A stretch of 36,322 bases of DNA, taken from contig JAZDGL010000050.1 in assembly GCA_043806975.1 (NCBI GenBank), forward strand, positions 1-36,322, read 5' to 3'. The notes under the pieces were generated by a model. The model had not been told where the DNA came from, ran no database searches, and saw only the letters and a program-made list of their open reading frames with translations. A program made the position numbers and the translations under genes. This document shows, piece by piece, positions 5,029 to 36,322 of the stretch (position 1 is the first letter of the stretch; every line of letters starts with the position of its first letter). The stretch is from a bacterium (GTDB lineage Bacteria; Patescibacteriota; Minisyncoccia; CAYZDR01).

Positions 5029-5054
5029 AGCATAAGCGGAGTAAAATTTTTATA

Positions 5055-5223
5055 TATATCTCCCATAAAACAAATTTATTTTAAAATCCCTCTTAATCTC
5101 CCTTTTCAAAGGGAGAAAATATCGGAATCCCTCTTAATCTTTCTTGCTGCGTTTCGCCGAAGCCCTTGGGGCGAAGGGGGATCAAAGGGGGGAAACATCG
5201 GAATTTGTTTTGTGGGAGATATA
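5055..5223 (+). mobile_element. TATAG-type MITE copy with duplicated core and nested palindrome
   Basis: TIRs tatatctcccataaaacaaatt / aatttgttttgtgggagatata. Core atccctcttaatct...atcggaat occurs twice. The second hairpin loop holds ttcgccgaagcccttggggcgaa. Confidence 0.8.
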
Positions 5224-5282
5224 TTTTAAGATTTTATTTTTGTTTTTTGAAAATTAAGCGAAAAAATAAGGGGGGTGATGGA

Positions 5283-7544: not shown

Positions 7545-7583
7545 TTATTTAAAAATAAAACCAGAAATCAAAAATTAAAAATT

Positions 7584-7678
7584 TATAGCTCCCGCAAAAT
7601 AAATTTATTTACAAAACCCCCTTCAATCCCCCCTTATTAAGGGGGGAAAATATCGGAATTTATTTTGCAAAAGCTATA
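7584..7678 (+). mobile_element. TATAG-ended MITE, minimal 95-bp copy
   Basis: TIRs tatagctcccgcaaaataaatt / aatttattttgcaaaagctata. Core aaaacccccttcaatccccccttattaagggggg. Confidence 0.82.
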
Positions 7679-7744
7679 GAAAAATTAGGTATTTTTGGTT
7701 TCTGGTTGCAGGCTTTTTCGCGGATAACGATATAACTAATAAAA

Positions 7745-11784: not shown

Positions 11785-11862
11785 AATAAAATTTTAAATC
11801 TATCCATACTTGCTTGGAATATTTTTTTGTTGAGAGCGGACGGAGGTTTTAAAATTAAATTC

Positions 11863-11985
11863 TATAGCTTTCACAAAACAAATCATCGCATTTTCTCCCT
11901 TTTTACCTCCCAAGGCGGTCTGCCCATTAGGCAGAAAGGGAGGCTGGGAGGGATTTTAAAATAAATTTGTTTTGCGGAGGCTATA
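11863..11985 (-). mobile_element. TATAG-ended MITE copy with nested palindromes in the hairpin loop
   Basis: TIRs tatagctttcacaaaacaaat / atttgttttgcggaggctata. Insert cctcccaaggcggtctgcccattaggcaga. Confidence 0.8.
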
Positions 11986-12054
11986 TTAGTATATTACCGA
12001 ATTTATTCTTTATTGGCAACAGCAGTGGAAGTAGGAGGAAAGATAGCCCTTATA

Positions 12055-12108
12055 TGTCATCCCGACCGAGCTTCGCCTGTATTCAGGCGGAGGCGAGTGG
12101 AGGGATCC
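12055..12108 (+). repeat. TGTCATCCCGAC..GGAGGGATCC palindromic repeat (half element)
   Basis: Near-identical to 33517-33570. Confidence 0.85.
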
Positions 12109-12109
12109 T

Positions 12110-12185
12110 AATATTTTCTCCCTTTAAACCTCCCAAGGCGGTCTGCCTTGGGTAGAAGAGGGATTTTATAATAATTTATTTTGCG
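12110..12185 (-). repeat. Partial MITE copy with CCCAAGGC-GGTCT-GCCTTGGG palindrome
   Basis: atattttctcccttt..cctcccaaggcggtctgccttgggtagaagagggatttt..ttttgcg. Matches parts of the 2418 and 22665 copies. Confidence 0.75.
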
Positions 12186-12245: not shown

Positions 12246-13844
12246 ATGGGGATAGCGATTGCCAGACAATTATTAACATTGAAAGAAGCGTGCGACTGGG
12301 CAAGCTTTTTTTCGGGCAAAAATATCAGTGAATCAAATATTTCATATCTTATACAATACGGCAAAGTCAAAAAATATGGTGAAAATGGCTCTACCCAAAT
12401 AAATATTGAGGATTTAAAATTATATTATCAATCATTTAATAATGGCATAAGGGAAATTGAGTGGAAAAAGAAACTTGGCAATGATTTAAATTGGAATTTG
12501 TCTTTTGATAACTTGCGCGAAAAAGATACCACAAAGCATGTCCATCGGCTGCATCCATATAAAGGAAAGTTTATCCCGCAATTAGTTGAATATTTTATTG
12601 ATAGCCACACTGACGATTTCAAGCAAAAATCTTTTTTTAAAAAAGGTGATATTATTTTAGATCCTTTTTCAGGATCAGGGACAACATTAGTGCAGGCGAA
12701 TGAGCTTGGCATTCACTCAATAGGAATTGATATATCGCGATTTAACTGTATGATAACCGATACAAAGCTTTTAGATTATGATTTAGATTCTCTGACCAAG
12801 GAAGTCAGGGATATAAATTTAGCAATCACCAAATTTGAAACGGATAAGAAAATTGAAGATTTTGAGAAGGATCTTTGTCTTGAATTGGCAAAATTTAACA
12901 ACAAAAATTTTCCTTCACCAGACTTTAAGAGAAAAATTTACAAACGAGAAATTAACGAAAATAAATACTCAGTTGAAAAAGAGAAAGAATTTTTTTCTAT
13001 ATATAACAAGCTAGTTGCTAAATATAAAATAGAACTCAAACAAGATAAAAACGAATCCTTTCTTGATAAATGGTATATAAAAAACATAAGAAAAGAAATT
13101 GATTTTGCTTTTGAGCAAATTAAAAAAGTAAAGGATGAAAAAAATAAAAGAGCTTTGGCGGTTATTTTAAGCAGGACAATTCGCTCTTGCCGCGCTACGA
13201 CACATTCTGACCTCGCAACATTAAAAGAGCCTCAAGTAGCTACTTACTATTGTTGGAAACATAAAAAAATATGCAAACCTCTTTTTTCAATAAAATATTG
13301 GTTCGGTCGTTATGCGAATGATGCTATTGTTAGGATAAAAGAATTTCAAAGATTAAGAAATGGATCTCACTGGGTATCAATTACAGGAGATTCAAGAACC
13401 GTTGACATAGCGAATGAAATAAAATCAAGAAATAAAGAATTTCATAAAATTCTTGAGAAACAAAAAATTCAGGGAATTTTTTCTTCCCCTCCATATGTGG
13501 GACAAATAGATTATCATGAGCAACATGCTTATGCATACGATCTTTTTGGTTTTGAGAGAAAAGATGGATTAGAAATCGGGCCGTTATATAAAGGGCAAGG
13601 GATGGAGGCCAAAAAATCTTATATTGAGGGCATATCGCAAGTTTTGCTAAATTCAAAAAAATATCTTGTGAACAATTTTGATGTATTTTTGGTAGCCAAT
13701 GATAAATGGAATTTATACCCTCAAATTGCAGAAAACGCAGGTATGCGAATAGCTAACCAATATAAGCGCCCCGTGCTTAATCGCACTGAACGCGATAAAA
13801 ATCCTTATTCAGAAATAATTTTTCATTTACAAAATAATTCATAA
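12246..13844 (+). CDS. Type II DNA methyltransferase, probably N4-cytosine, with N-terminal HTH-like segment
   Basis: HRLHPYKGKFIPQL, motif I DPFSGSGTT preceding motif IV SPPY. Confidence 0.9.
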   Translation: MGIAIARQLLTLKEACDWASFFSGKNISESNISYLIQYGKVKKYGENGSTQINIEDLKLYYQSFNNGIREIEWKKKLGNDLNWNLSFDNLREKDTTKHVHRLHPYKGKFIPQLVEYFIDSHTDDFKQKSFFKKGDIILDPFSGSGTTLVQANELGIHSIGIDISRFNCMITDTKLLDYDLDSLTKEVRDINLAITKFETDKKIEDFEKDLCLELAKFNNKNFPSPDFKRKIYKREINENKYSVEKEKEFFSIYNKLVAKYKIELKQDKNESFLDKWYIKNIRKEIDFAFEQIKKVKDEKNKRALAVILSRTIRSCRATTHSDLATLKEPQVATYYCWKHKKICKPLFSIKYWFGRYANDAIVRIKEFQRLRNGSHWVSITGDSRTVDIANEIKSRNKEFHKILEKQKIQGIFSSPPYVGQIDYHEQHAYAYDLFGFERKDGLEIGPLYKGQGMEAKKSYIEGISQVLLNSKKYLVNNFDVFLVANDKWNLYPQIAENAGMRIANQYKRPVLNRTERDKNPYSEIIFHLQNNS

Positions 13845-13846
13845 AT

Positions 13847-14638
13847 ATGGCATTATCAAACAAATTGCAGTTTAAAATTCATAATTTTCTTAAAGAAAAA
13901 TTGCTGAAAAAAATTGATGAATATAGTCTTAACGACGATGATTCATCAAAACCATTTCAATACGCTCTTTTTACAAAAAAGGGCTATCTGACAAAAGGTT
14001 TTATACATGGATGTGAAACGGCATTAGGCAATTGGCATGAATCAATAGCAAAAATTATTGCAGCGGAAAATTTTAAAGTAGCAGAAAAACTTCAAGGCAA
14101 AAATAAATTAAAGGGGCAGGTAACCAATGAGGCGCAGAAAATATTTGAAAATATTTTAAGCGATCTTGATAGCGCTCTCAGGGAGCCTAACTATGAAAAG
14201 GAGGCTAATGAAATTTTTAGCGCTAGCCAAGAAAGTAATAAAATTTTAGATCGTATTCAAACGGTTGATTTATTTCTTGAAAAGGAAGGCGGTGAAGAAA
14301 TTTATTTTGAAATAAAAGGACCAAAACCAAATAAAAATGAGATGAGAGCTGCGAAAAGAGATCTTCTTGAAATTTTTGCGATGAGGACGCGCGAAGGTAA
14401 AAAAGTAAGAATTTATCTCGGGATGTATTATAATCCATATTATCCAAAAGACTATCAAAGATGGACTTGCCTCAAATTTTTTAGCAAAGGACAAGATTTT
14501 TTGATAGGCAAAGATTTTTGGGATTTTTTGGGAGGAGCTGGCGCCTACGAAAATCTAATTAAGATATACGAAGATGTCGGTGAAGAAATAAGGCCTGCGC
14601 TTGATAAAAAATTTAAAGATTTATTCAATGAATCATAA
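13847..14638 (+). CDS. Type II restriction endonuclease, TdeIII family
   Basis: PD-(D/E)xK core VDLFL..YFEIKGPKPN, YNPY, FWDFLGGAGAYE..VGEEIRP. Starts 2 nt after the MTase. Confidence 0.8.
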   Translation: MALSNKLQFKIHNFLKEKLLKKIDEYSLNDDDSSKPFQYALFTKKGYLTKGFIHGCETALGNWHESIAKIIAAENFKVAEKLQGKNKLKGQVTNEAQKIFENILSDLDSALREPNYEKEANEIFSASQESNKILDRIQTVDLFLEKEGGEEIYFEIKGPKPNKNEMRAAKRDLLEIFAMRTREGKKVRIYLGMYYNPYYPKDYQRWTCLKFFSKGQDFLIGKDFWDFLGGAGAYENLIKIYEDVGEEIRPALDKKFKDLFNES

Positions 14639-14705: not shown

Positions 14706-15953
14706 CTATAATAGCGGGCAAACATTGATATTGGCGTCTGTTTCCACTTCCCACGGTTTGCGGGTCGCTTCTTGGCGGTGAAAATATCCAGCGACTGCGA
14801 TCATCGCGGCGTTGTCTGTGCAAAATTGCAATGGGGGAACGGAGAATTTTATTTCGGGGAAAGTATTTTTTATTTTTGCGGCAAGTTGAAATCGCAGCTG
14901 GGAATTTGCGGCGACCCCGCCTGCTAAAATGATTGTTTTTGGAGAAAATTTATGCGCCGCCTTAATTGTTTTGGATATCAGCACTTCAACAACAGCTTGC
15001 TGAAATTCTGCGGCGATATTATTGGCTTGTGATGGCTGTAATTCTGCGCCGTTTGCGGTTTTTGCGTCTAATTCTCTTACCGCTGTTTTTATCCCGCTAA
15101 AACTGAAATCAAAATTTTTGCTTGAAATCATAGGGCGAGGAAGGCTGTAAATTCCGGGTGTTCCATTTTCTGCCGCTTTGGAAATTGCGGGACCTCCCGG
15201 GTAGCCTAAATTTAAAAGTCGCGCGGCTTTATCAAAGGCTTCTCCTACGGCGTCGTCGCGGGTCGCTCCAACAGAAATAAACTTTTTATGGTCTTTCATT
15301 AAAACCAATTCAGTATGACCTCCTGACACAACTAAGGCTAGAACTGGGAAGATTATTTCCTTTATTTCTTCTTTTTCGCGTCCTCCGAAGTCTGCTGACG
15401 CAGGAGAGGTAGAATGGCCGGGTATATTTTTAAAATCCCCCTTAGTCCCCCTTCTAAAAGGGGGAAAAATTAAGGATATTCCCTTTAAAAAGAGGGTAGA
15501 TATATTTCTAGGCTCTTCCTTTATTTCCCCCTTTGTAAAGGGGGTAGGGGGATTTTCTATCCAATTTGCGTAAATATGTCCTTCAATATGGTTAACTCCG
15601 ACAATTGGTTTCTCCCAAACATAAGAAAGTGTTTTTGCTGCGCTTGTTCCAACCAAAAGCGCAGGGATCAACCCCGGTCCGCGCGTAACCGTAATTAAAT
15701 CTATATCTTTTATTTTTATTGCAGATTTTTGCAAAGCTTCTTCCAAAACCGAAGTTATGTTTTTTGTATGTTCGCGAGCTGCTAAATTGGGGATTATCCC
15801 TCCAAATTGAGAGTGCAAGCCTACTTGACTAGAAACGATATTTGATAAAATTTCAAAATTAACCGATTCCTCGGGTTCTGTTGTTGTCGTTTCTGCTTTT
15901 AAAACTGCTGCTGCGGTTTCATCGCAAGATGTTTCAATCGCTAGAATTATCAT
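14706..15953 (-). CDS. tsaD: tRNA threonylcarbamoyltransferase TsaD, with a repeat-derived in-frame insertion
   Basis: ILAIETSCDET, HIEGH, VSGGHT, DDAVGEAFDK, FSFSGIKTA, CTDNAAMIA. Confidence 0.97.
   Translation of the reverse strand: MIILAIETSCDETAAAVLKAETTTTEPEESVNFEILSNIVSSQVGLHSQFGGIIPNLAAREHTKNITSVLEEALQKSAIKIKDIDLITVTRGPGLIPALLVGTSAAKTLSYVWEKPIVGVNHIEGHIYANWIENPPTPFTKGEIKEEPRNISTLFLKGISLIFPPFRRGTKGDFKNIPGHSTSPASADFGGREKEEIKEIIFPVLALVVSGGHTELVLMKDHKKFISVGATRDDAVGEAFDKAARLLNLGYPGGPAISKAAENGTPGIYSLPRPMISSKNFDFSFSGIKTAVRELDAKTANGAELQPSQANNIAAEFQQAVVEVLISKTIKAAHKFSPKTIILAGGVAANSQLRFQLAAKIKNTFPEIKFSVPPLQFCTDNAAMIAVAGYFHRQEATRKPWEVETDANINVCPLL
15432..15556. mobile_element. Intragenic palindromic doublet inside tsaD
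   Basis: Perfect 11-bp terminal IR aaaatccccct / agggggatttt. Same end pair as the intergenic 27566-27856 element. Confidence 0.85.
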
Positions 15954-17623: not shown

Positions 17624-17739
17624 TTAAGGGCGTGTCGCCGAATGCAATTTTTTCAAAATTCTGAAATTTTTTAGGCTTTAATAAACCAAAAAATTTTTCG
17701 AAAATTGCAAAATTTACTATTCGGCGACAGCCCCTTTAA
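17624..17739. mobile_element. MITE-like inverted-repeat element
   Basis: ttaagggcgtgtcgccgaat ... attcggcgacagcccctttaa, plus an internal IR gcaatttt / aaaattgc. Confidence 0.65.
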
Positions 17740-18647
17740 TTTAGATTCTCCATAAAATCAAGGATTTCTTTTTGCACTTTTAGCATTGGAAATTTTTTCC
17801 AAGGGAAAATAGATTTTGAGACAGACATAATTGCGCAAATATAGTGAGCAGAGTTGCTTTTAGCCGAGAAGACATCATTGTGCCAGCGAATTACAGCCCA
17901 GTGTTTTTTAAAAATACTTTTAATGGCAGATTTAAAAGAGTATTTCCAAAGGTTTGTTTCTAGCCATCCTCCTTTCCCGAAAATTTTTTCAAATTGTTGC
18001 TTGTAAAATTTTTCTTCGCATTTTTCAGGTTTTTCCCCGAGCTTTGAAAGCTTTTCGGATACCCAAGGAGAAACCATTTGATTTTTCTCCACTAAGTAGA
18101 AGAACTCTGCCAAATGTTTTGCGCAAGACATAGTTATGTCTGAAAAACGGAATTTTGGATTTTCCTTGTCTCTATTAAGGAATTTTCTCGTTACCTCACT
18201 TCCTTGCCATCCGTATTTATGAATAATATTTTCAGTGATCGCTTCCCTGGAAACTAAATCAATTAGGCAATTTGACGCGGTATTATCCGAACGGGTAAGC
18301 ATAAGGTTTAATAGATATTCAACTGAAACTTTGTCGCCAGTTTTTAAAAGCGGTCTTGAATCATTCGGGAAAATTCGGGAGTCTCTATCAACATCATTCG
18401 GGGATTTAACTGTAATTATGGTAATTAGCGAGAAAGTTTTTTGTTCTATTTGCCTTAATACTTCTGCTCCAATGAAAATTTTATAACAACTTGCTGGATA
18501 AATAAATTTATTTATCTGATAGCCAAAAATCTCGTGTTCTGAAGATGCAAGGTTAATAATGCAAATTGAAAAATCGAATTTTTTCCGATATTTTTTTGCT
18601 ATTTTTTCCATTAACTTTTTTTCTGTGTTTGAATTATATTGAAGCAT
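17736..18647 (-). CDS. Serine hydrolase, class A beta-lactamase-like
   Basis: SxxK (ASCYK), SDN (RSDNTAS), and KGG in place of KTG. No signal peptide. Start may be 18611. Confidence 0.8.
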   Translation of the reverse strand: MLQYNSNTEKKLMEKIAKKYRKKFDFSICIINLASSEHEIFGYQINKFIYPASCYKIFIGAEVLRQIEQKTFSLITIITVKSPNDVDRDSRIFPNDSRPLLKTGDKVSVEYLLNLMLTRSDNTASNCLIDLVSREAITENIIHKYGWQGSEVTRKFLNRDKENPKFRFSDITMSCAKHLAEFFYLVEKNQMVSPWVSEKLSKLGEKPEKCEEKFYKQQFEKIFGKGGWLETNLWKYSFKSAIKSIFKKHWAVIRWHNDVFSAKSNSAHYICAIMSVSKSIFPWKKFPMLKVQKEILDFMENLN

Positions 18648-18793
18648 TAGATTCTCCCCTTGATCTCAAATGAAAAATAAAATTTTGAAATTTATTTTCT
18701 AGAAAGGTTATGGTAATTTGGTAATTAATAATATGCGGCTCGCGGGTTAATAAAAATCCCTGAAACTGCGTTAATAAAAGTTTCAGGGATAAA

Positions 18794-19450
18794 TTACATC
18801 GGTCCGTAAAAAGCCGATGTATGTTTCCCATAAGCTGCCCAAAGGCGGTCTCCATAGGAATAATGCCACCATTCGGCGGGATAGTTTTGAAATCCCGCTT
18901 TGACCATGGCGTTTAAAAGAATATCCCTAAATTCGCATTCCTTTTTTGAAATTGTCCTTGCAAACATTGGAGTTTTTTCCGAAAACTCCTGAACTTTAGT
19001 TCCCAAGAATAGCTCATTTCCGTTTTTATCTCCAAGCGTGACATCAATGGCTCCGCCTGTTTGATGCCCGCCGCCCAGTCCGACAGGTTTTGCGGCGAAT
19101 AGCCTGGCTATTCTTTCTACCTCTTCTTGACCTGCGTCAGGCTCCATTTCTTTGGCCTTTAAAAGCGCTCTATTCCAAAGCTCTTGCTGTCTTTCTCTGC
19201 TTCGAAAACCTTCCACAAAAATTAAAGTGAATTCCGCGGGAAGATTGTTTGAAACTTCTTTGAGCATTCCATAAACCTTTTCACGGCACCGATAATCCTT
19301 TGTAGCGTATCGTGCGATTCTCAGTTTTTCCGTTTCCACAATTTCAACTAATGTTTCGCCGTTATCTTGGATGGGTATCGCATTTATCTTATTGCGCGGC
19401 AATACACCTCGCAATTCCAAAAACCTGACACATTTTTCTTTAACTTGCAT
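18794..19450 (-). CDS. D-alanyl-D-alanine dipeptidase, M15 (VanX/DdpX-like)
   Basis: EGFRSRERQ, HQTGGAIDVTL, EWWHYSYGD. Confidence 0.88.
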   Translation of the reverse strand: MQVKEKCVRFLELRGVLPRNKINAIPIQDNGETLVEIVETEKLRIARYATKDYRCREKVYGMLKEVSNNLPAEFTLIFVEGFRSRERQQELWNRALLKAKEMEPDAGQEEVERIARLFAAKPVGLGGGHQTGGAIDVTLGDKNGNELFLGTKVQEFSEKTPMFARTISKKECEFRDILLNAMVKAGFQNYPAEWWHYSYGDRLWAAYGKHTSAFYGPM

Positions 19451-19479
19451 AAGAAATTTAATATTAAAAGAGTTAATTG

Positions 19480-20043
19480 TTATTCGCCTCCTTTCATAAT
19501 ACTACCATTGCTTCGATACATGTCAATTGTGTATTCCATCTGGATTTCATCAACTCGATTACCAAGCTCAAATCGCGATTTCTTAAATCTTCCGCATTCG
19601 CGGAATCCTAATTTTTGGTACAACTTTATCGCCTTTTTATTCGCCTCCGAAACGGACAAATGAATGGCAAATAAATCGCACTCTTCAAAAGCCCAAGAAA
19701 TCATAAGTTTTGAAGCCAGGAAAGCATGACCGGCTCTTTGAAATTGAGGCTCTGCCACGGCAATCCGAAAAATTCCGATCCTATGTCTTTTACGGATAAA
19801 TAAACCCGTGTAGCCGATTGGTTCCCACGAATCTTTTTCTTTCGCAACAACTATCCAGCTATCCTTTTTATGGCTTTCCGCGTAAGAGACAGAATCCGAC
19901 TGAGTAAATGGAAACGGATCGATGTCTCCCATAAAAAGGTAGATTTGTTCGTTGTTCATCCATTTAAAAATAAGCTGGTTTGTATCACTTGCAAATGGCG
20001 CGAGTCCAGTGTTCTTGAAGATTAATCTAGGGGTATACAGCAT
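19480..20043 (-). CDS. GNAT N-acetyltransferase, RimJ/RimL/SpeG-like
   Basis: ATG at 20043 after AAGGAG. FQRAGHA, NKKAIKLYQKLGF. Confidence 0.82.
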   Translation of the reverse strand: MLYTPRLIFKNTGLAPFASDTNQLIFKWMNNEQIYLFMGDIDPFPFTQSDSVSYAESHKKDSWIVVAKEKDSWEPIGYTGLFIRKRHRIGIFRIAVAEPQFQRAGHAFLASKLMISWAFEECDLFAIHLSVSEANKKAIKLYQKLGFRECGRFKKSRFELGNRVDEIQMEYTIDMYRSNGSIMKGGE

Positions 20044-20196
20044 TTTTTTCTCCTTCTTGTGATTATTAAAGCAACAAAACAAAATTACCTCCTAAGTAAT
20101 TTAAAAATAGCATATTTTTCTATTTTGTCAACCAAAAACGTCTTGTTAAGTATTGGAATCGTTTATTCCTGAGTGAACTTGTCTCAATTTTTCAAC

Positions 20197-22664: not shown

Positions 22665-22716
22665 CTTCTCCTTTTTACCTCCCAAGGCGGTCTGCCTTGG
22701 GTAGAAGATGGATTTT
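22665..22716 (-). repeat. Partial MITE core with CCCAAGGC palindrome
   Basis: cctcccaaggcggtctgccttgggtagaaga, identical to the copy at 12129-12159. Confidence 0.8.
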
Positions 22717-22833: not shown

Positions 22834-22866
22834 CAGACTAGTTTTAATGTTATGAAGCAAATAAAA

Positions 22867-22925
22867 ATAGCTGCCGCAAAACAAATTTATTTTAAAATCC
22901 CCCAGCCCCCTTTTTAAAGGGGGAA
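22867..22925 (+). repeat. One-ended TATAG MITE copy
   Basis: atagctgccgcaaaacaaatttattttaaaatcccccagccccctttttaaaggggg. Second TIR absent. Confidence 0.78.
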
Positions 22926-22967
22926 GTAAAAATATTTTATTCTTGTTTTATTCGGGATGGAAAATTA

Positions 22968-27565: not shown

Positions 27566-27856
27566 AAAATCCCCCTACCCCCTTTAAGAAAGGGGGAAAA
27601 ATAATTTCCTGTTTAAGAATTTTTCCTTTAAGAGGGGGGGAATGCTGTTAAGATATTTTTTCTATAAAGTCGAATTTCTTCCCTTTCCTTAGGAAGGGGA
27701 AAATAAAAAAAGAAATTTCTTCCCCCTTTTTATAATAAGAATTAAAGTATTCTTTCCCCCCCCTTGCAAATAAAGGTATTCTTCCCACTTTTTGTAAATA
27801 AGAATTAAAGCATCCTTTCTTTTCCCCCTTTTTAAAGGGGGATTAAGGGGGATTTT
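27566..27856. repeat. Expanded palindromic doublet/array of CCCCCTT..AAGGGGG units
   Basis: Terminal IR aaaatccccct / agggggatttt. Several degenerate internal units and a repeated aataagaattaaag. Confidence 0.82.
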
Positions 27857-29797: not shown

Positions 29798-31804
29798 ATG
29801 TTTAAACTGAAATCACAATTTGCGCCGAGCGGCGATCAGCCGAAGGCGATTGAAGAGCTGGTAAAGGGGCTGGAATCCGGGATGGATTTTCAGACGCTTT
29901 TAGGCGTGACGGGATCAGGGAAAACATTTACGATGGCGAATGTGATTCAGCGGGTTCAAAAGCCGACCTTGATTATCGCGCACAATAAAACGCTTGCGGC
30001 ACAGCTAGCAAGCGAGTTTAGGCAGTTTTTCCCGGAAAATGCGGTGGAGTATTTTGTGTCTTACTATGATTATTATCAGCCAGAAGCGTATTTGCCGTCA
30101 TCCGATACCTATATAGAAAAGGAATCTCAAATAAACGAAGAGATTGATCGTTTGCGGCACGCGGCGACTGCGGCAGTGATGAGCAGGCGCGATGTTATTA
30201 TCGTTGCGTCGGTTTCGTGTATTTACGGCTTGGGCTCGCCTGAATTTTATAAAGATATAACTTTGCAGATTGAAAAAGGCGAAAAAGTTAATCGTGAACA
30301 AATTGCGCGCCAGCTTACAAAAATGCATTATACGCGAAGTGAAGTTTTGGAGCGTGCGCGATTTCGCATTCACGGGCCGATTTTAGAAATTGTCCCGCCG
30401 GATAAAGAAATCGTGTGGCGAGTTGAATTAGGAGAAGGGGATGTTGTTGAGGAGATCTCGCAGAGAGATTTATTCGCAACCCCCTCCGACTCCCCCTTGC
30501 CAAAGGGGAGAGAAAGAGGGGATGCGCAGGGCAGGAGCGATTTGGATAAAATTATTATCTATCCCGCCAAGCATTTTATTGTTCCAGAGCCTGTAATGGG
30601 CGGAGCGATTAAGGAAATAAAAAAGGAATTGGCGCAAAGACTAAAACAATTTGAAAAAGAGGGGAAGCTTTTGGAGGTGGAACGGTTGGAACGGAGGACG
30701 AATTATGATACTGAAATGATGAAAGAAATCGGCTATTGCAATGGGATTGAAAATTATTCCCGATATTTAACTAACCGCAAGCCGGGCGAACCGCCTTTCA
30801 CTTTGCTGGACTATTTTCCAAAAGATTTTTTGACGATAATTGACGAATCGCATGTTACAGTTTCGCAAGTCGGGGCGATGTTTGAAGGAGATAAATCTCG
30901 TAAAAAAGCCTTAATTGAACACGGGTTCCGTCTGCCGTCCGCAGCAGATAACCGCCCGCTTAAATTTAATGAATTTGAAGAGCGGATCGGGCAGGTGATT
31001 TTTACTTCTGCGACTCCGGCTAAATATGAGCGCGAAAATTCCCGCCAAACGGTGGAACAAATTATTCGTCCGACAGGTTTGGTTGATCCTGAGGTTATTT
31101 TGAAACCGCTTAAAAATCAAGTTTCCGATGTGATTGAAGAAATAAAAAAGCGCGCGGATAAAGATGAGCGCGTGCTAGTGACGACTTTGACTAAAAAAAT
31201 GGCGGAACAGTTAAGCGAATATCTTGTGGAGGCGGGAGTGAAATCTAAATATCTGCATAGCGAAGTGGATACGCTAGATAGGATCCGTATTTTAAAAGAG
31301 TTGCGGCAGGGCAAATTTGATTGTCTTGTTGGGGTGAATTTACTCCGCGAAGGGTTAGATTTGCCGGAAGTTTCTTTGGTGGCAATTTTGGATGCGGATA
31401 AAGAAGGATTTTTGAGGAGTGAAACTTCTTTGATCCAAACAATTGGTCGCGCGGCGCGAAATATAAGCGGAAAAGTGATTTTGTATGCGGATAATATCAC
31501 GGGATCAATGCGCAGGGCGTTAGATGAAACTGATCGCCGTCGTGAAATTCAGATCGAGCATAATAAAAAGCATAACATTACGCCGCAGTCTATTAAAAAA
31601 TCTATAGAATCTATTATTGATTATGAAATTAGTCAGGAAAAACCGTTAGCGGAATTTGTAAAGCTGGAAAGCATTGAGGATTTGCCGAAATATATTAAAC
31701 AGCGGGAGCGCGAAATGAAACTGCTTGCCAAAGCGCTGGATTTTGAAGGTGCGGCATTGATTAGAGACGAGATAAATCAACTGAGAAAAATAAAAAGCGG
31801 CTAA
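29798..31804 (+). CDS. uvrB: Excinuclease ABC subunit B
   Basis: GVTGSGKT, YYDYYQPEAY, IDESH, NLLREGLDLPEV, QTIGRAARN. Confidence 0.98.
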   Translation: MFKLKSQFAPSGDQPKAIEELVKGLESGMDFQTLLGVTGSGKTFTMANVIQRVQKPTLIIAHNKTLAAQLASEFRQFFPENAVEYFVSYYDYYQPEAYLPSSDTYIEKESQINEEIDRLRHAATAAVMSRRDVIIVASVSCIYGLGSPEFYKDITLQIEKGEKVNREQIARQLTKMHYTRSEVLERARFRIHGPILEIVPPDKEIVWRVELGEGDVVEEISQRDLFATPSDSPLPKGRERGDAQGRSDLDKIIIYPAKHFIVPEPVMGGAIKEIKKELAQRLKQFEKEGKLLEVERLERRTNYDTEMMKEIGYCNGIENYSRYLTNRKPGEPPFTLLDYFPKDFLTIIDESHVTVSQVGAMFEGDKSRKKALIEHGFRLPSAADNRPLKFNEFEERIGQVIFTSATPAKYERENSRQTVEQIIRPTGLVDPEVILKPLKNQVSDVIEEIKKRADKDERVLVTTLTKKMAEQLSEYLVEAGVKSKYLHSEVDTLDRIRILKELRQGKFDCLVGVNLLREGLDLPEVSLVAILDADKEGFLRSETSLIQTIGRAARNISGKVILYADNITGSMRRALDETDRRREIQIEHNKKHNITPQSIKKSIESIIDYEISQEKPLAEFVKLESIEDLPKYIKQREREMKLLAKALDFEGAALIRDEINQLRKIKSG

Positions 31805-32544: not shown

Positions 32545-33408
32545 TTAGCAAAGAGGAGCGATTGACTTTAATCCTTCTAGCACCCCTTCTATCTCTTTGC
32601 CTTGGGCAAAGTATATACTATTTAAATTCATTTGTCTAGCCTTTGTCTTTATTTCTTCTCTTGCGTTTCCGACTAAAATTGAAGGAATCCCGCTCGCAAA
32701 AACATCTAAGTCGTTGCCTTCATCGCCAGCAAAAACGACAGAAATTTCTTCCATCTTTTGGGAAGAAGGGTTGGGGGAGGAGTCGCTCTTTCTCTCCCCC
32801 TTTATAAGGGGGAGTTGGAGGGGGTGTTCCAGCAGATATTCAATCCCTGCCAATTTAGAGATATTGTCCGCTAATATCTCTAAAATCCCCGTTTTCCCTT
32901 TTAAATCTTGGCTGTAAATTATTTTAATTTCTTTGATGCCGTTTTTTTCTAATAATTTTCGCGCTTCTTTTGTAATTTTTCCAGAATCTATTTTTAAATC
33001 CACATAAAACCCGGCTTTAAATTGGTGTTGTTTTGAATCTTCTTGAATTTTTAAATCTTTTGATTGAGATAAAATACTAATAATTTTTTCTTTATTAAAA
33101 TCTGAATTGCTGGCGGATATTTTTTGACGGTATTTTTTGTCTTCTTCCCATTTTTTGCCATTGCGGCGATAAAGTGCCGCGCCATTAAAGGGGATTAAAA
33201 AATCAGGCATCGGCAAAAGGTATTTTTCAATCGCTTCACAAGCCATTTGAAAAGTCCTGCCGGTAGGGTAGCATAAAATAAATTGCGGATTTTCTTCCAG
33301 CAATTTTCCGAATTTTTTAATGCCGTCAAAATTTGGTGTTTCAGTGGAATTTGGGATAAGCGTGCCGTCTATATCAATGGCGAGGAGAATTTTATTTTTT
33401 GTTTTCAT
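32545..33408 (-). CDS. HAD-IIB hydrolase (sucrose-phosphatase/Cof-like), with repeat insertion
   Basis: DIDGTL, TGR, SK, FAGDEGND, VGNA. The track's longer start runs through a repeat. Confidence 0.88.
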   Translation of the reverse strand: MKTKNKILLAIDIDGTLIPNSTETPNFDGIKKFGKLLEENPQFILCYPTGRTFQMACEAIEKYLLPMPDFLIPFNGAALYRRNGKKWEEDKKYRQKISASNSDFNKEKIISILSQSKDLKIQEDSKQHQFKAGFYVDLKIDSGKITKEARKLLEKNGIKEIKIIYSQDLKGKTGILEILADNISKLAGIEYLLEHPLQLPLIKGERKSDSSPNPSSQKMEEISVVFAGDEGNDLDVFASGIPSILVGNAREEIKTKARQMNLNSIYFAQGKEIEGVLEGLKSIAPLC

Positions 33409-33516
33409 TAAAAATATAATAGCAGTAAAAAAACATTGAAGCAAGAAATGAGAGACTATAAAGAAGATTAATGTGTGCAATGTCTGCGCAAAAGATTGTA
33501 ATTGCTCATTGTTTTT

Positions 33517-33678
33517 TGTCATCCCGACCGAGCTCCGCCTGTATTCAGGTGGAGGCGAGCGGAGGGATCCCTTAAATAATATGTACAAGATTTTAATTTT
33601 TTAGCAAAAATCATTAAAGAGACTCCTCCGCTCGTAATTTCTGCTTTGCTAACAGAAATTACTTCGGTCGGAGTGACA
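33517..33678. repeat. TGTCA..TGACA long inverted-repeat element
   Basis: tgtcatcccgaccgag..cgagcggaggga pairs with ctcctccgctcg..ttcggtcggagtgaca. Confidence 0.85.
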
Positions 33679-33799: not shown

Positions 33800-36322
33800 A
33801 TGGAGAAATTAGATAAAAAAATCGTTGTTCATGGAGCGCGGGAGCATAATCTCAAAAATGTTCATTTGGAAATTCCAAAGGACAAATTTATTGTGTTCAC
33901 GGGAGTTTCGGGCAGCGGGAAATCTTCCCTCGCTTTTGATACTATTTTTGCAGAAGGGCAGCGGCGCTATCTTGAAAGTTTATCGGCTTATGCGCGGCAA
34001 TTTTTAACGCAGATGGAAAAGCCCGATGTTGATTATATTGAAGGGCTTTCTCCAGCTATCTCAATAGACCAAAAATCGGCATCGCGAAATCCGCGATCAA
34101 CAGTGGGAACCGTAACGGAGGTTCACGATTATTTGCGGTTGCTTTTTGCCCGCGTTGGAACGCCATATTGTCCGCAGTGCGGCGAAGAAATTAAAAAAAT
34201 CACAATAGATGAGATTATTGATAAAATTTTAACTGATTTTGAAGGGAAGAAAATTGAAATTTTTGCTCCGATTGTGCGGGGAAGAAAAGGGGAATATCTA
34301 GCGCTTTTAAATGATATGTATAAAAGGGGATTTAGCCGGGCAATTGTGGACGGGGAAGAAGTTGACTTGCGAAGCGCGGGAACACACCCCCTCTTAACCT
34401 CCCCCTCCGGAAGGGAGAGGCAAGGAGAGAGTATTCCCTCTGGCAGGGGGAGAGATAAAACCCCTCCCGATCTCTCCTTAAAAGGGGAGAAGGCAGACGA
34501 TAAATATAAAAAGCACGATATAGACATTTTTATTGATTCTGTTGAAGTGAATGCGGATAATATTGGGCGGGCGAATGAATCAATAGAATTGGCGCTTAAA
34601 ATAGCCGATGGTTTAGTAAAAATAAAATGCGGAAAAGCGGATAAAGGCAAAGGCAAAAAAAGCGAGAATAAAAGCGAAGAGCTGATTTTTAATCAGAAAC
34701 TCACTTGTCCGCGGTGCGGAATTGCTTTTGAAGAAATAGAACCGCGGCTTTTTTCTTTCAATAGTCCGTTTGGAGCATGCCCCGATTGCAACGGGCTTGG
34801 GAGCAAGAAAAACATTGATTTAAATTTGGTGATGCCCGATAAAAATAAAACCATTCAAGAAGGCGGTTTTTTGCCTTGGACATATAAAATTAATAATTAT
34901 TATGGAAATTTAATCAAGCAAGTTTCGCAACAATACAGAATTCCGCTTAATACGAGGATAAAAGACATCCCGAAAGAAAAAATTGATATTTTGCTTTATG
35001 GATCGCCTGATGGAGAAGAGCTGTTAAAAGTGAAATATATTGTTCAGGGCAAGACATTTTATCATAATATCAAGTTTGACGGGCTTATTCCTCATTTAGA
35101 GGAGCGCTATCGTAAAACTGATTCTGATGCTGTTCGCAAGGAAATTGAAAAATATATTTCAGATAGTCCGTGTCCTGCTTGCGAAGGGGCAAGGCTTAAA
35201 AAAGAAGCCTTGCTGGTGCGGGTTGGCGGTAAAAATATCGGAGAGGTGAACCGAATGTCTGTGAATCGGGCGCGGGATTTTTTTCTTAAATTAAATTTAA
35301 CTGAACGGCAGAAGTTGATTTCGCGCAGAATTTTTAAGGAAATTGAAAATAGGCTTAAATTTTTGGAGGATGTGGGGTTAGGATATTTAACGCTTGAAAG
35401 GGCGGCGATGACTTTGGCGGGAGGAGAGGCGCAGAGAATTCGCTTGGCATCACAGCTGGGTTCGTCTTTGACGGGAGTTCTATATATTTTAGACGAGCCA
35501 TCTATCGGGCTTCATCAAAGAGACAACGGGAGGCTTTTGGACACTTTGGAGAAATTAAGGGATTTGGGGAATACAGTGATTGCGGTTGAACACGATGAGG
35601 AAACAATGCGGCGAGCCGATTGGGTGGTGGATATAGGTCCTGGCGCAGGAAAACACGGAGGGAAAATTGTCGCGTCAGGTTCGGTCAAGGAGGTGATTGA
35701 AACAGAGGGATCTTTAACGGGGCAATATCTTTCTGGAAAAGAAAAAATTGAAATTCCTGAAAGGCGCCGTCCATTGCGAAATAAAATGATTGTTGTGAAG
35801 GGAGCGCGGGAACATAATTTGAAAAATATTACAGCGGGTTTTCCAGTCGGGCTTTTTACTTGCGTTACGGGTGTTTCTGGAAGTGGAAAATCATCTTTGG
35901 TGAATGATATTTTGTATAAAGCGCTGGCGCGCCAAGTTGGGCATTCTTTGGAAAAGCCGGGGCAATTTTCAAGCATTAGCGGGTTTGAGAATTTGGACAA
36001 GGCGATTATAGTGGATCAGTCTCCAATCGGGCGCACTCCCCGCAGTAATCCAGCGACATATACGGGATTTTTTACGGACATTAGGGAAATTTTTGCAATG
36101 GTTCCTGAGGCGAAAGCGAAAGGATATTTGCCGGGGCGATTTAGTTTTAATGTTGCTGGCGGAAGGTGCGAGAATTGCAATGGCGATGGATTTTTGCAGG
36201 TGGAGATGCAATTTTTGCCCGATGTTTATATTCCATGCGATGTGTGCAGCGGAAAGCGGTATAATGCCGAAACTCTTAAAATTTGCTATAAAGGTAAAAA
36301 CATCGCTGACATCTTGAATATG
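33800..36322 (+). CDS. uvrA: Excinuclease ABC subunit A (3'-truncated, absent from the ORF track)
   Basis: GAREHNLKN, GVSGSGKSSLAFDTIFAEGQRRY, Zn fingers, LAGGEAQRIRLA, LDEPSIGLH, second Walker A. Frame is consistent to the window end. Confidence 0.98.
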   Translation, partial: MEKLDKKIVVHGAREHNLKNVHLEIPKDKFIVFTGVSGSGKSSLAFDTIFAEGQRRYLESLSAYARQFLTQMEKPDVDYIEGLSPAISIDQKSASRNPRSTVGTVTEVHDYLRLLFARVGTPYCPQCGEEIKKITIDEIIDKILTDFEGKKIEIFAPIVRGRKGEYLALLNDMYKRGFSRAIVDGEEVDLRSAGTHPLLTSPSGRERQGESIPSGRGRDKTPPDLSLKGEKADDKYKKHDIDIFIDSVEVNADNIGRANESIELALKIADGLVKIKCGKADKGKGKKSENKSEELIFNQKLTCPRCGIAFEEIEPRLFSFNSPFGACPDCNGLGSKKNIDLNLVMPDKNKTIQEGGFLPWTYKINNYYGNLIKQVSQQYRIPLNTRIKDIPKEKIDILLYGSPDGEELLKVKYIVQGKTFYHNIKFDGLIPHLEERYRKTDSDAVRKEIEKYISDSPCPACEGARLKKEALLVRVGGKNIGEVNRMSVNRARDFFLKLNLTERQKLISRRIFKEIENRLKFLEDVGLGYLTLERAAMTLAGGEAQRIRLASQLGSSLTGVLYILDEPSIGLHQRDNGRLLDTLEKLRDLGNTVIAVEHDEETMRRADWVVDIGPGAGKHGGKIVASGSVKEVIETEGSLTGQYLSGKEKIEIPERRRPLRNKMIVVKGAREHNLKNITAGFPVGLFTCVTGVSGSGKSSLVNDILYKALARQVGHSLEKPGQFSSISGFENLDKAIIVDQSPIGRTPRSNPATYTGFFTDIREIFAMVPEAKAKGYLPGRFSFNVAGGRCENCNGDGFLQVEMQFLPDVYIPCDVCSGKRYNAETLKICYKGKNIADILNM

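Follow-up and report, generated by a model that had tools for sequence, protein, structure and literature searches.

In-frame composite of BoxC/triplex-type palindromic repeats in the interdomain linker of TsaD in a Patescibacteriota genome

REPIN/RAYT systems consist of a small nuclease gene tied to a hairpin repeat that is dispersed in the genome. Palindromes that lie in frame in housekeeping genes are also an already published phenomenon, exemplified by the Rickettsia RPEs and by intragenic REP dimers. In the accessible parts of the respective papers, the Rickettsia RPEs are described as palindromic repeats of about 150 bp that are found in frame in unrelated housekeeping genes (Ogata 2000, 2002; in PMC10969869, PMC3184786). 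Intragenic dimers and clusters of GTAG/CGTC REPs encode 20–82 amino acids, and the hosts mentioned in the same excerpt include uvrA, uvrB, UvrD/Rep helicases, tRNA synthetases and tRNA-modifying enzymes (Di Nocera 2013, PMC3733652). A different architecture is reported for the BoxC/PIT/TMECO repeats, in which a C-stem is followed by a loop, a G-stem, a short loop and a mirror G-stem; according to the part of that study used here, all TMECO copies of E. coli MG1655 lie between genes, with no mobility gene found beside them (Holder 2015, PMC4666352). The Ssn/NTS pair, as its source outlines it in the available text, combines a small nuclease gene with a hairpin repeat scattered through the genome (PMC11893778). 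On coding palindromes in Patescibacteria/CPR, nothing relevant was found in the partially accessible literature outside subscription journals.

The window analysed here is the whole of a 36,322-nt stretch, contig C50 of assembly G000. This assembly comprises 670 kb in 75 contigs and is 87% complete; it could therefore lack a second tsaD or full-length cassettes located between genes. Named homologues belong to Parcubacteria/Patescibacteria, which points to this group as the host lineage. The gene of interest and its unusual loop are located as follows:

14706..15953, minus strand: tsaD, an open frame of 415 aa and the sole copy found in the assembly
15351..15560, minus strand: interdomain loop of 70 aa (residues 132–201), about 63 of them inserted, defined by orthologue comparison and a structure model

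The identity of the 415-aa protein as TsaD is supported by a TIGR03723 score of 390 bits, compared with a curated cut-off of 296. Pfam detects only TsaD-type families in the insert-bearing protein, and the top Foldseek matches of the modelled protein are TsaD structures (target TM 0.91). The metal ligands D11, E12, H122, H126 and D380 are intact and match the E. coli set, given as D11, E12, H111, H115 and D300 in the accessible part of PMC4330362. A PF00814 search of the 87% complete assembly returned a single locus, and with its ligands intact this one tsaD does not look like a decaying copy beside a second intact gene, the case that the sequence-only reading had asked to be checked. Genes for TsaC and TsaE are present in the genome; a separate tsaB was not detected by the PF00814 search, which covers the 87% of the genome that was assembled and which a diverged TsaB could escape. 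Between tsaD and its same-family orthologues, pN is 0.23–0.25 and pS is 0.70–0.72, the latter near saturation; these values bear on long-term rather than current selection. The exact TsaD protein is on record from a single contig. Directly past the 3' end of tsaD lies a gene pair for a DNA methylase and a TdeIII-type restriction endonuclease (12246–14638). On the other side, upstream of tsaD and a MurA/EPSP-synthase-family gene, a cluster at 17736–20082 encodes a beta-lactamase-fold protein, a D-Ala-D-Ala dipeptidase (VanX/VanY-like) and an acetyltransferase-like ORF, the last of which was labelled by eye.

Seventy residues (132–201, corresponding exactly to 15351–15560) separate the segment ending in HIEGHIYANW from FPVLALVVSGGHT, as had been read from the sequence. 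The stretch between the HxxxH helix and FPVLALVVSGGH spans 70 residues here versus 7 in three same-family genomes. The linker is indeed short in the same family, with a distance from HxxxH to SGGH of 20 aa in 3/3 same-family genomes versus 83 aa here, which amounts to a net gain of about 63 aa or 189 bp. Since the flanking DNA is collinear with the three genomes on both sides, it is this lineage that acquired the approximately 189 bp. With regard to a possible target requirement, the opening 5 nt of the element occur in tsaD orthologues and do not clearly occur in those of prmC and alaS. Solved TsaD structures align with the protein in two blocks, skipping approximately residues 137–202. AlphaFold run on the TsaD sequence alone gave a pLDDT of 32, and an AlphaFold2 model based on a 90-sequence alignment was used instead (mean pLDDT 87, with at least 90 at 333 residues). 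In this model the core is confident and the loop is predicted to be disordered, with pLDDT below 50 at residues 136–194. The suggestion that the loop lies next to the metal-binding HxxxH motif holds along the chain, where it begins 6 residues past H126, and is not sustained beyond the sequence.

Four of the six reading frames of the insert contain 3–8 stops, and a 63-codon open frame is retained in tsaD. An intron, an intein or a known structured RNA can be dismissed, as the frame is open without splicing, Pfam reports TsaD-type families only and Rfam gives chance-level matches to the insert, none near the gathering score. No target-site duplication was identified at the insert junctions. A MITE was likewise rejected, because the long shared ends of the intergenic copies are absent around the tsaD insert and there is no junction duplication. 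Intergenic elements with long shared inverted ends and hairpin units inside are found at 5040–5240, 7580–7690, 11860–12170 and 22862–22935.

In reading direction, the insert consists of a first unit, a decayed copy of it, an inverted partner and a tail of about 80 bp; a related intergenic element lies elsewhere in the window:

15517..15556, minus strand: first repeat unit, a hairpin (15526–15544) with a mirror G block; class II triplex pattern on the plus strand, 8 triplets without mismatch
15481..15510, minus strand: tandem copy of the first unit in decayed form, 48 bp further along the reading direction, recognised by sequence and alignment
15432..15469, minus strand: inverted partner unit, a hairpin (15446–15465) with a mirror G block; class II triplex pattern on the minus strand, 9 triplets with 1 mismatch
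15351..15431, minus strand: tail with a weak palindrome (15382–15406), related to the tail of the recG sibling; 3' boundary uncertain by a few codons
27566..27856, plus strand: intergenic sister element sharing both end types, with a different interior and stops in all six frames

The first unit is made up of a C block, a short spacer, a C-stem hairpin and a purine tail, and the third, decayed unit (15481–15510), which the sequence-only reading had overlooked, has the same orientation. The doublet formed by the outer units (15432–15556, 125 bp) folds well, with z-scores of −4.1 and −4.4 that are equalled by 0/200 shuffles. The second palindrome claimed at 15382–15406 fares worse, with a z-score of −0.49 and 59/200 shuffles folding equally well. 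A pattern written to admit this copy has 7 matches in the genome versus 0–1 in 5 controls, and the segment may, by its sequence, belong to a small repeat family as a diverged copy. Both ends of the doublet indeed match those of the element at 27566–27856 in opposite orientation (32/34 and 34/37 nt); as the interiors share only short repeat-family matches, the two are sister elements rather than copies. A TTA second loop (type A-like) is present in the 27566 element. The class II purine triplex rule of Holder, as implemented here, specifies three stems of 6–15 nt, loops of 1–6 nt and at most one mismatch. Both ends of the tsaD doublet conform to this sequence pattern for an intrastrand triplex, and their third blocks point outward. 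The genome contains 191 class II G-rich motifs, whereas three Markov controls yield 1, 0 and 0. A strict search for the TMECO consensus finds nothing in the genome. Judged by these sequence patterns, the tsaD repeat units are BoxC-like and are not TMECO members, the TMECO consensus being absent.

A 27-bp GC-rich palindrome is found at 2470–2496, 12129–12155 and 22678–22704, and in 45 copies genome-wide. It is nearly always located in or beside the second loop of triplex-type units, and one copy resides in recG (G000:C37:24675). In 42/45 copies the palindrome has the same base on either side (A..A or G..G), pointing to a target duplication of 1 bp; many of the copies may descend from one carrier element. 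Another palindromic repeat family is represented by two 59-bp copies, 92% identical, at 12050–12108 and 33512–33570.

The repeat pattern yields 285 overlapping matches in this genome versus 0, 0 and 1 in the three same-family genomes; the repeat expansion is thus lineage-specific. Among 57 other genomes, 8 contain 1–21 matches. A strict definition gives 117 distinct units in the genome, 28 of which are deep inside 19 ORFs of at least 150 aa, while a looser pattern touches 25 ORFs. The density of strict units is 0.53 per 10 kb in ORFs versus 6.1 elsewhere, i.e. 11-fold lower inside ORFs, as expected from purging, to which a target preference could contribute. Three further genes of the window carry the repeat family in frame, as determined by repeat pattern and NCBIfam:

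30480..30521, plus strand: repeat in uvrB
32786..32825, minus strand: repeat in a gene for a HAD-family hydrolase
34388..34493, plus strand: repeat in uvrA

NCBIfam named 20/21 of the repeat-bearing host proteins submitted, several of them below the cut-off. The hosts include TrmD, Tgt, a MiaB-family enzyme, TlyA, PrmC, LeuS and PyrG, and also PriA, RecJ, PcrA, TatD, UvrA, UvrB and UppP; the labels recG, ksgA, alaS and glycosyltransferase stem from reading the sequences by eye. Sister-genus orthologues lack this repeat at the site in 3/3 cases each for alaS, prmC and ksgA and in both of the recG orthologues found. Like an RPE, the repeat is therefore both intergenic and in frame in several unrelated genes and absent from their orthologues. 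Different repeats occupy the same loops as the cassette in sister-genus orthologues of ksgA (L116, G002) and recG (L114, L113); in the ksgA orthologue of G002, what looked like a frameshift is a scaffold gap, which leaves the analysis without an example of a gene disrupted by the repeat. When 300 genomes of the phylum were searched for the cassette, with two candidates per genome scored, 12 had matches, all to short parts.

The linker of TsaD is variable beyond this genome. For 29 class-wide TsaD proteins (30 loci, of which L011 was dropped as a wrong ORF), the distance from HxxxH to SGGH is 19–23 aa in 14, 25–49 aa in 13, 72 aa in one and 83 aa in the protein described here. Of 120 database matches, 119 were measured, with linkers of more than 25 aa in 87 and more than 60 aa in 10, the query favouring long linkers. 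On the evidence of these sequences, the TsaD linker is a permissive hotspot, and about half of the class-wide proteins examined have it expanded by unrelated repeats; the insertion site is therefore less surprising than the sequence-only reading had implied. One of these database matches, P0038, has in its linker a peptide of this repeat type that seems to have arisen independently, and in G021 the same repeat type is found in a different TsaD loop. In L005, L014, L017, L018, L026 and L033, up to three separate TsaD loops contain low-complexity peptides rich in K/S/Q/I/N/F, which look like translated short tandem repeats when their sequences are inspected.

As to a possible artefact, contigs from run X1, a related strain, bridge both insert junctions by more than 31 nt, which bears on the read support for the assembly that had been called for. 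One contig corresponds to 15514–15653 with 9 differences (94% identical, no gaps) and the other to 15293–15434 with 16 differences (89% identical, no gaps); each is 151 nt long at a depth of 2–3, and positions 15473–15513 are uncovered. Over the insert, runs X2–X5 yielded nothing beyond short pieces of repeats or conserved genes. A repeat-induced chimera or a decaying gene copy would be in keeping with the fragmented metagenome assembly, the single contig from which the exact protein is known and the middle of the insert, which is covered by no run. These points are set against the bridging of both junctions in a diverged strain, a 63-codon open frame kept although 4/6 frames hold stops, intact ligands with no other tsaD found and the recurrence of the same pattern in 18 other genes. 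An artefact or a decaying copy is scarcely credible on this balance, and the insert is real. The same X1 contigs bear on whether the loop has been domesticated for TsaD, by contributing to tRNA binding, replacing a missing TsaB or regulating the gene via mRNA structure. Its retention in the related strain, the lack of a separate tsaB in the PF00814 search and the strong folding of the doublet are compatible with such a role. However, among the 19 of 25 X1 differences listed, 9/11 changes in insert codons are non-synonymous, without any stop, whereas 4/5 changes in host codons are synonymous; several of the listed differences fall in the weak palindrome at 15382–15406. In addition, the loop is predicted to be disordered, relatives lack it or carry unrelated sequences in its place, and unrelated enzymes contain the same peptide, two of the siblings having frame shifts inside it. 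Domestication is accordingly rated as highly improbable.

The siblings of the insert are also informative about its assembly. Its best matches are in a glycosyltransferase gene (C21, 86% over 136 nt), recG (C37) and ksgA (C49), with body identities to tsaD of 116/142, 117/141 and 101/142, respectively (71–83%), and the recG tail matches the tsaD tail at 35/57 positions. The same three-unit, 140-column body with the same spacers is found in these three unrelated genes. The four full-length body copies measure 124, 124, 124 and 151 nt and share orientation and frame, each of them residing in an ORF. A profile built from the four copies revealed no fifth full-length copy in the assembly, whose gaps may hide others (best 45 of 143 matches), and its best two intergenic matches are limited to the initial 75 of 142 positions; weaker matches score below 45 bits versus 135–147 for the four copies, which score high by construction. 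The recG copy contains a nested 28-bp insertion that is compensated by a 1-bp deletion, and in the recG and ksgA siblings the reading frame is shifted over the right hairpin. Thus, length modulo 3 is conserved and the peptide is not. As the body length is 1 modulo 3, body and tail keep the frame only jointly. The proposal that insertions were filtered for frame in a working gene is supported by the single tsaD with intact ligands, the stops in 4/6 frames, the 11-fold lower repeat density in ORFs and the constancy of the siblings modulo 3. The accompanying claim of successive insertions at this site finds no support for the doublet, because its whole body is present in three unrelated genes and the tail resembles that of recG. 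It is simpler to assume that a composite already built elsewhere was inserted once. Going by these sequence comparisons, the 124-bp body probably did not take shape within tsaD. A stepwise origin within tsaD, by several insertions and tandem duplications that were each frame-filtered, would account for the 48-bp internal decayed duplicate and for a tail palindrome that resembles another family, and nested insertions are real in this genome, where the 27-bp palindrome occurs 45 times, nearly always in repeat units, including the recG sibling. It would not explain why three other genes carry the same three-unit body with the same spacers and recG part of the same tail, nor how a body of 1 modulo 3 kept the frame without the tail; we consider it improbable.

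The preferred reading, to which a probability of roughly 0.8 is assigned, is that the BoxC/triplex-type composite in the TsaD linker likely represents one pre-built cassette that was kept in frame as a predicted disordered and near-neutral loop of a working enzyme. The cassette likely entered tsaD in one step during the lineage-specific repeat expansion and likely survived because the frame was kept and the loop is tolerant, with selection presumably acting on the frame rather than on the peptide. It is predicted to be translated as a near-neutral loop on the surface of a TsaD that would remain active, and is likely a tolerated selfish-DNA insertion. By itself, the tsaD locus is ordinary for a group in which a tolerant TsaD linker gathers repeats. 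The genome as a whole constitutes a dense natural experiment, with about 20–25 housekeeping genes that carry the repeat in frame and empty sites in sister genomes, which together map permissive loops in conserved enzymes.

A possible partner of the repeats is DUF559, which we take to be a nuclease of the PD-(D/E)XK Vsr-like fold class. The genome holds two DUF559 genes, each with class II motifs on both flanks, which are of other subfamilies than the tsaD unit. These genes, at G000:C40:1256–1615 and C16:20325–20852, are bracketed by triplex-type repeats within C40:1000–1760 and C16:20300–21000, and a 31-bp stretch of the C40 gene that includes its stop codon is repeated exactly upstream of it. 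Among 17/20 DUF559 matches examined from 61 relatives, 9/11 strong ones have a hairpin on at least one flank, the remaining 2/11 have long-loop versions recognised by eye, and 0/6 weak Vsr-like matches have a flanking hairpin. At 29 further DUF559 loci of the phylum, a hairpin is present in 37/58 near flanks versus 1/54 distant windows. DUF559 occurs in 7/12 genomes with cassette matches versus 53/300 overall, the genomes being kin and hence not independent. G001 and G002, which belong to the same family as the genome studied here, possess DUF559 genes and show no repeat expansion. The literature searched, partially accessible and outside subscription journals, yielded no link between DUF559 and such repeats. 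A RAYT was rejected as the mobiliser, since the two Y1 transposase genes have no hairpin of the family within 800 bp. These two RAYT-like genes (G000:C37:18557–19138 and C7:3593–4123) contain a GTAG-type palindrome inside their own frame, which also occurs twice in frame in prmC (C70) and in tatD (C37). By analogy with the service of RAYT to REPINs, the DUF559 nuclease might cut and move the repeats that flank its genes, a possibility given somewhat less than an even chance. If this were so, DUF559 would be the partner enzyme for which the BoxC/TM literature has looked in vain. A more doubtful extension is that triplex-ended repeats and DUF559 might form a transposase-free mobile system, in which the lineage of the 124-bp doublet would have turned gene-dwelling. 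The gene-dwelling part draws on the location of all four full-length copies in ORFs and of none between genes, and on the compensating indels that keep length modulo 3. If correct, coding loops would shelter the element from deletion and give rise to new protein loops.

Compared with the systems described above, as far as the accessible parts of their sources describe them, the tsaD insert combines familiar features in a different way. It resembles the Rickettsia RPEs in that in-frame repeats with related peptides reside in unrelated housekeeping genes of a small-genome bacterium. It differs in its triplex-pattern units, its modular composite structure, its host group and its sequence family, the last being set apart by description. 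The GTAG/CGTC REPs share much the same list of target genes, yet the units studied here lack the GTAG/CGTC tag at their ends and possess a third mirror block, and the enzyme beside the repeats is DUF559 and not RAYT. Membership in the GTAG/CGTC REPs with RAYT was rejected, because the tags are absent and the two Y1_Tnp genes are not flanked by the family. The likeness to BoxC/TMECO extends to the same order of stems and loops, inverted pairs that combine two loop types and a copy number that swings sharply between relatives, whereas here 28/117 units are coding, DUF559 genes are flanked and the third blocks point outward in the doublet. REPIN/RAYT and Ssn/NTS likewise associate a small nuclease gene with a genome-scattered hairpin repeat, although here the nuclease is DUF559 rather than HUH or GIY-YIG and its action on the repeat is putative. 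Thus, the tsaD insert works like RPEs and intragenic REP dimers and, as far as tested, stands outside their sequence families.
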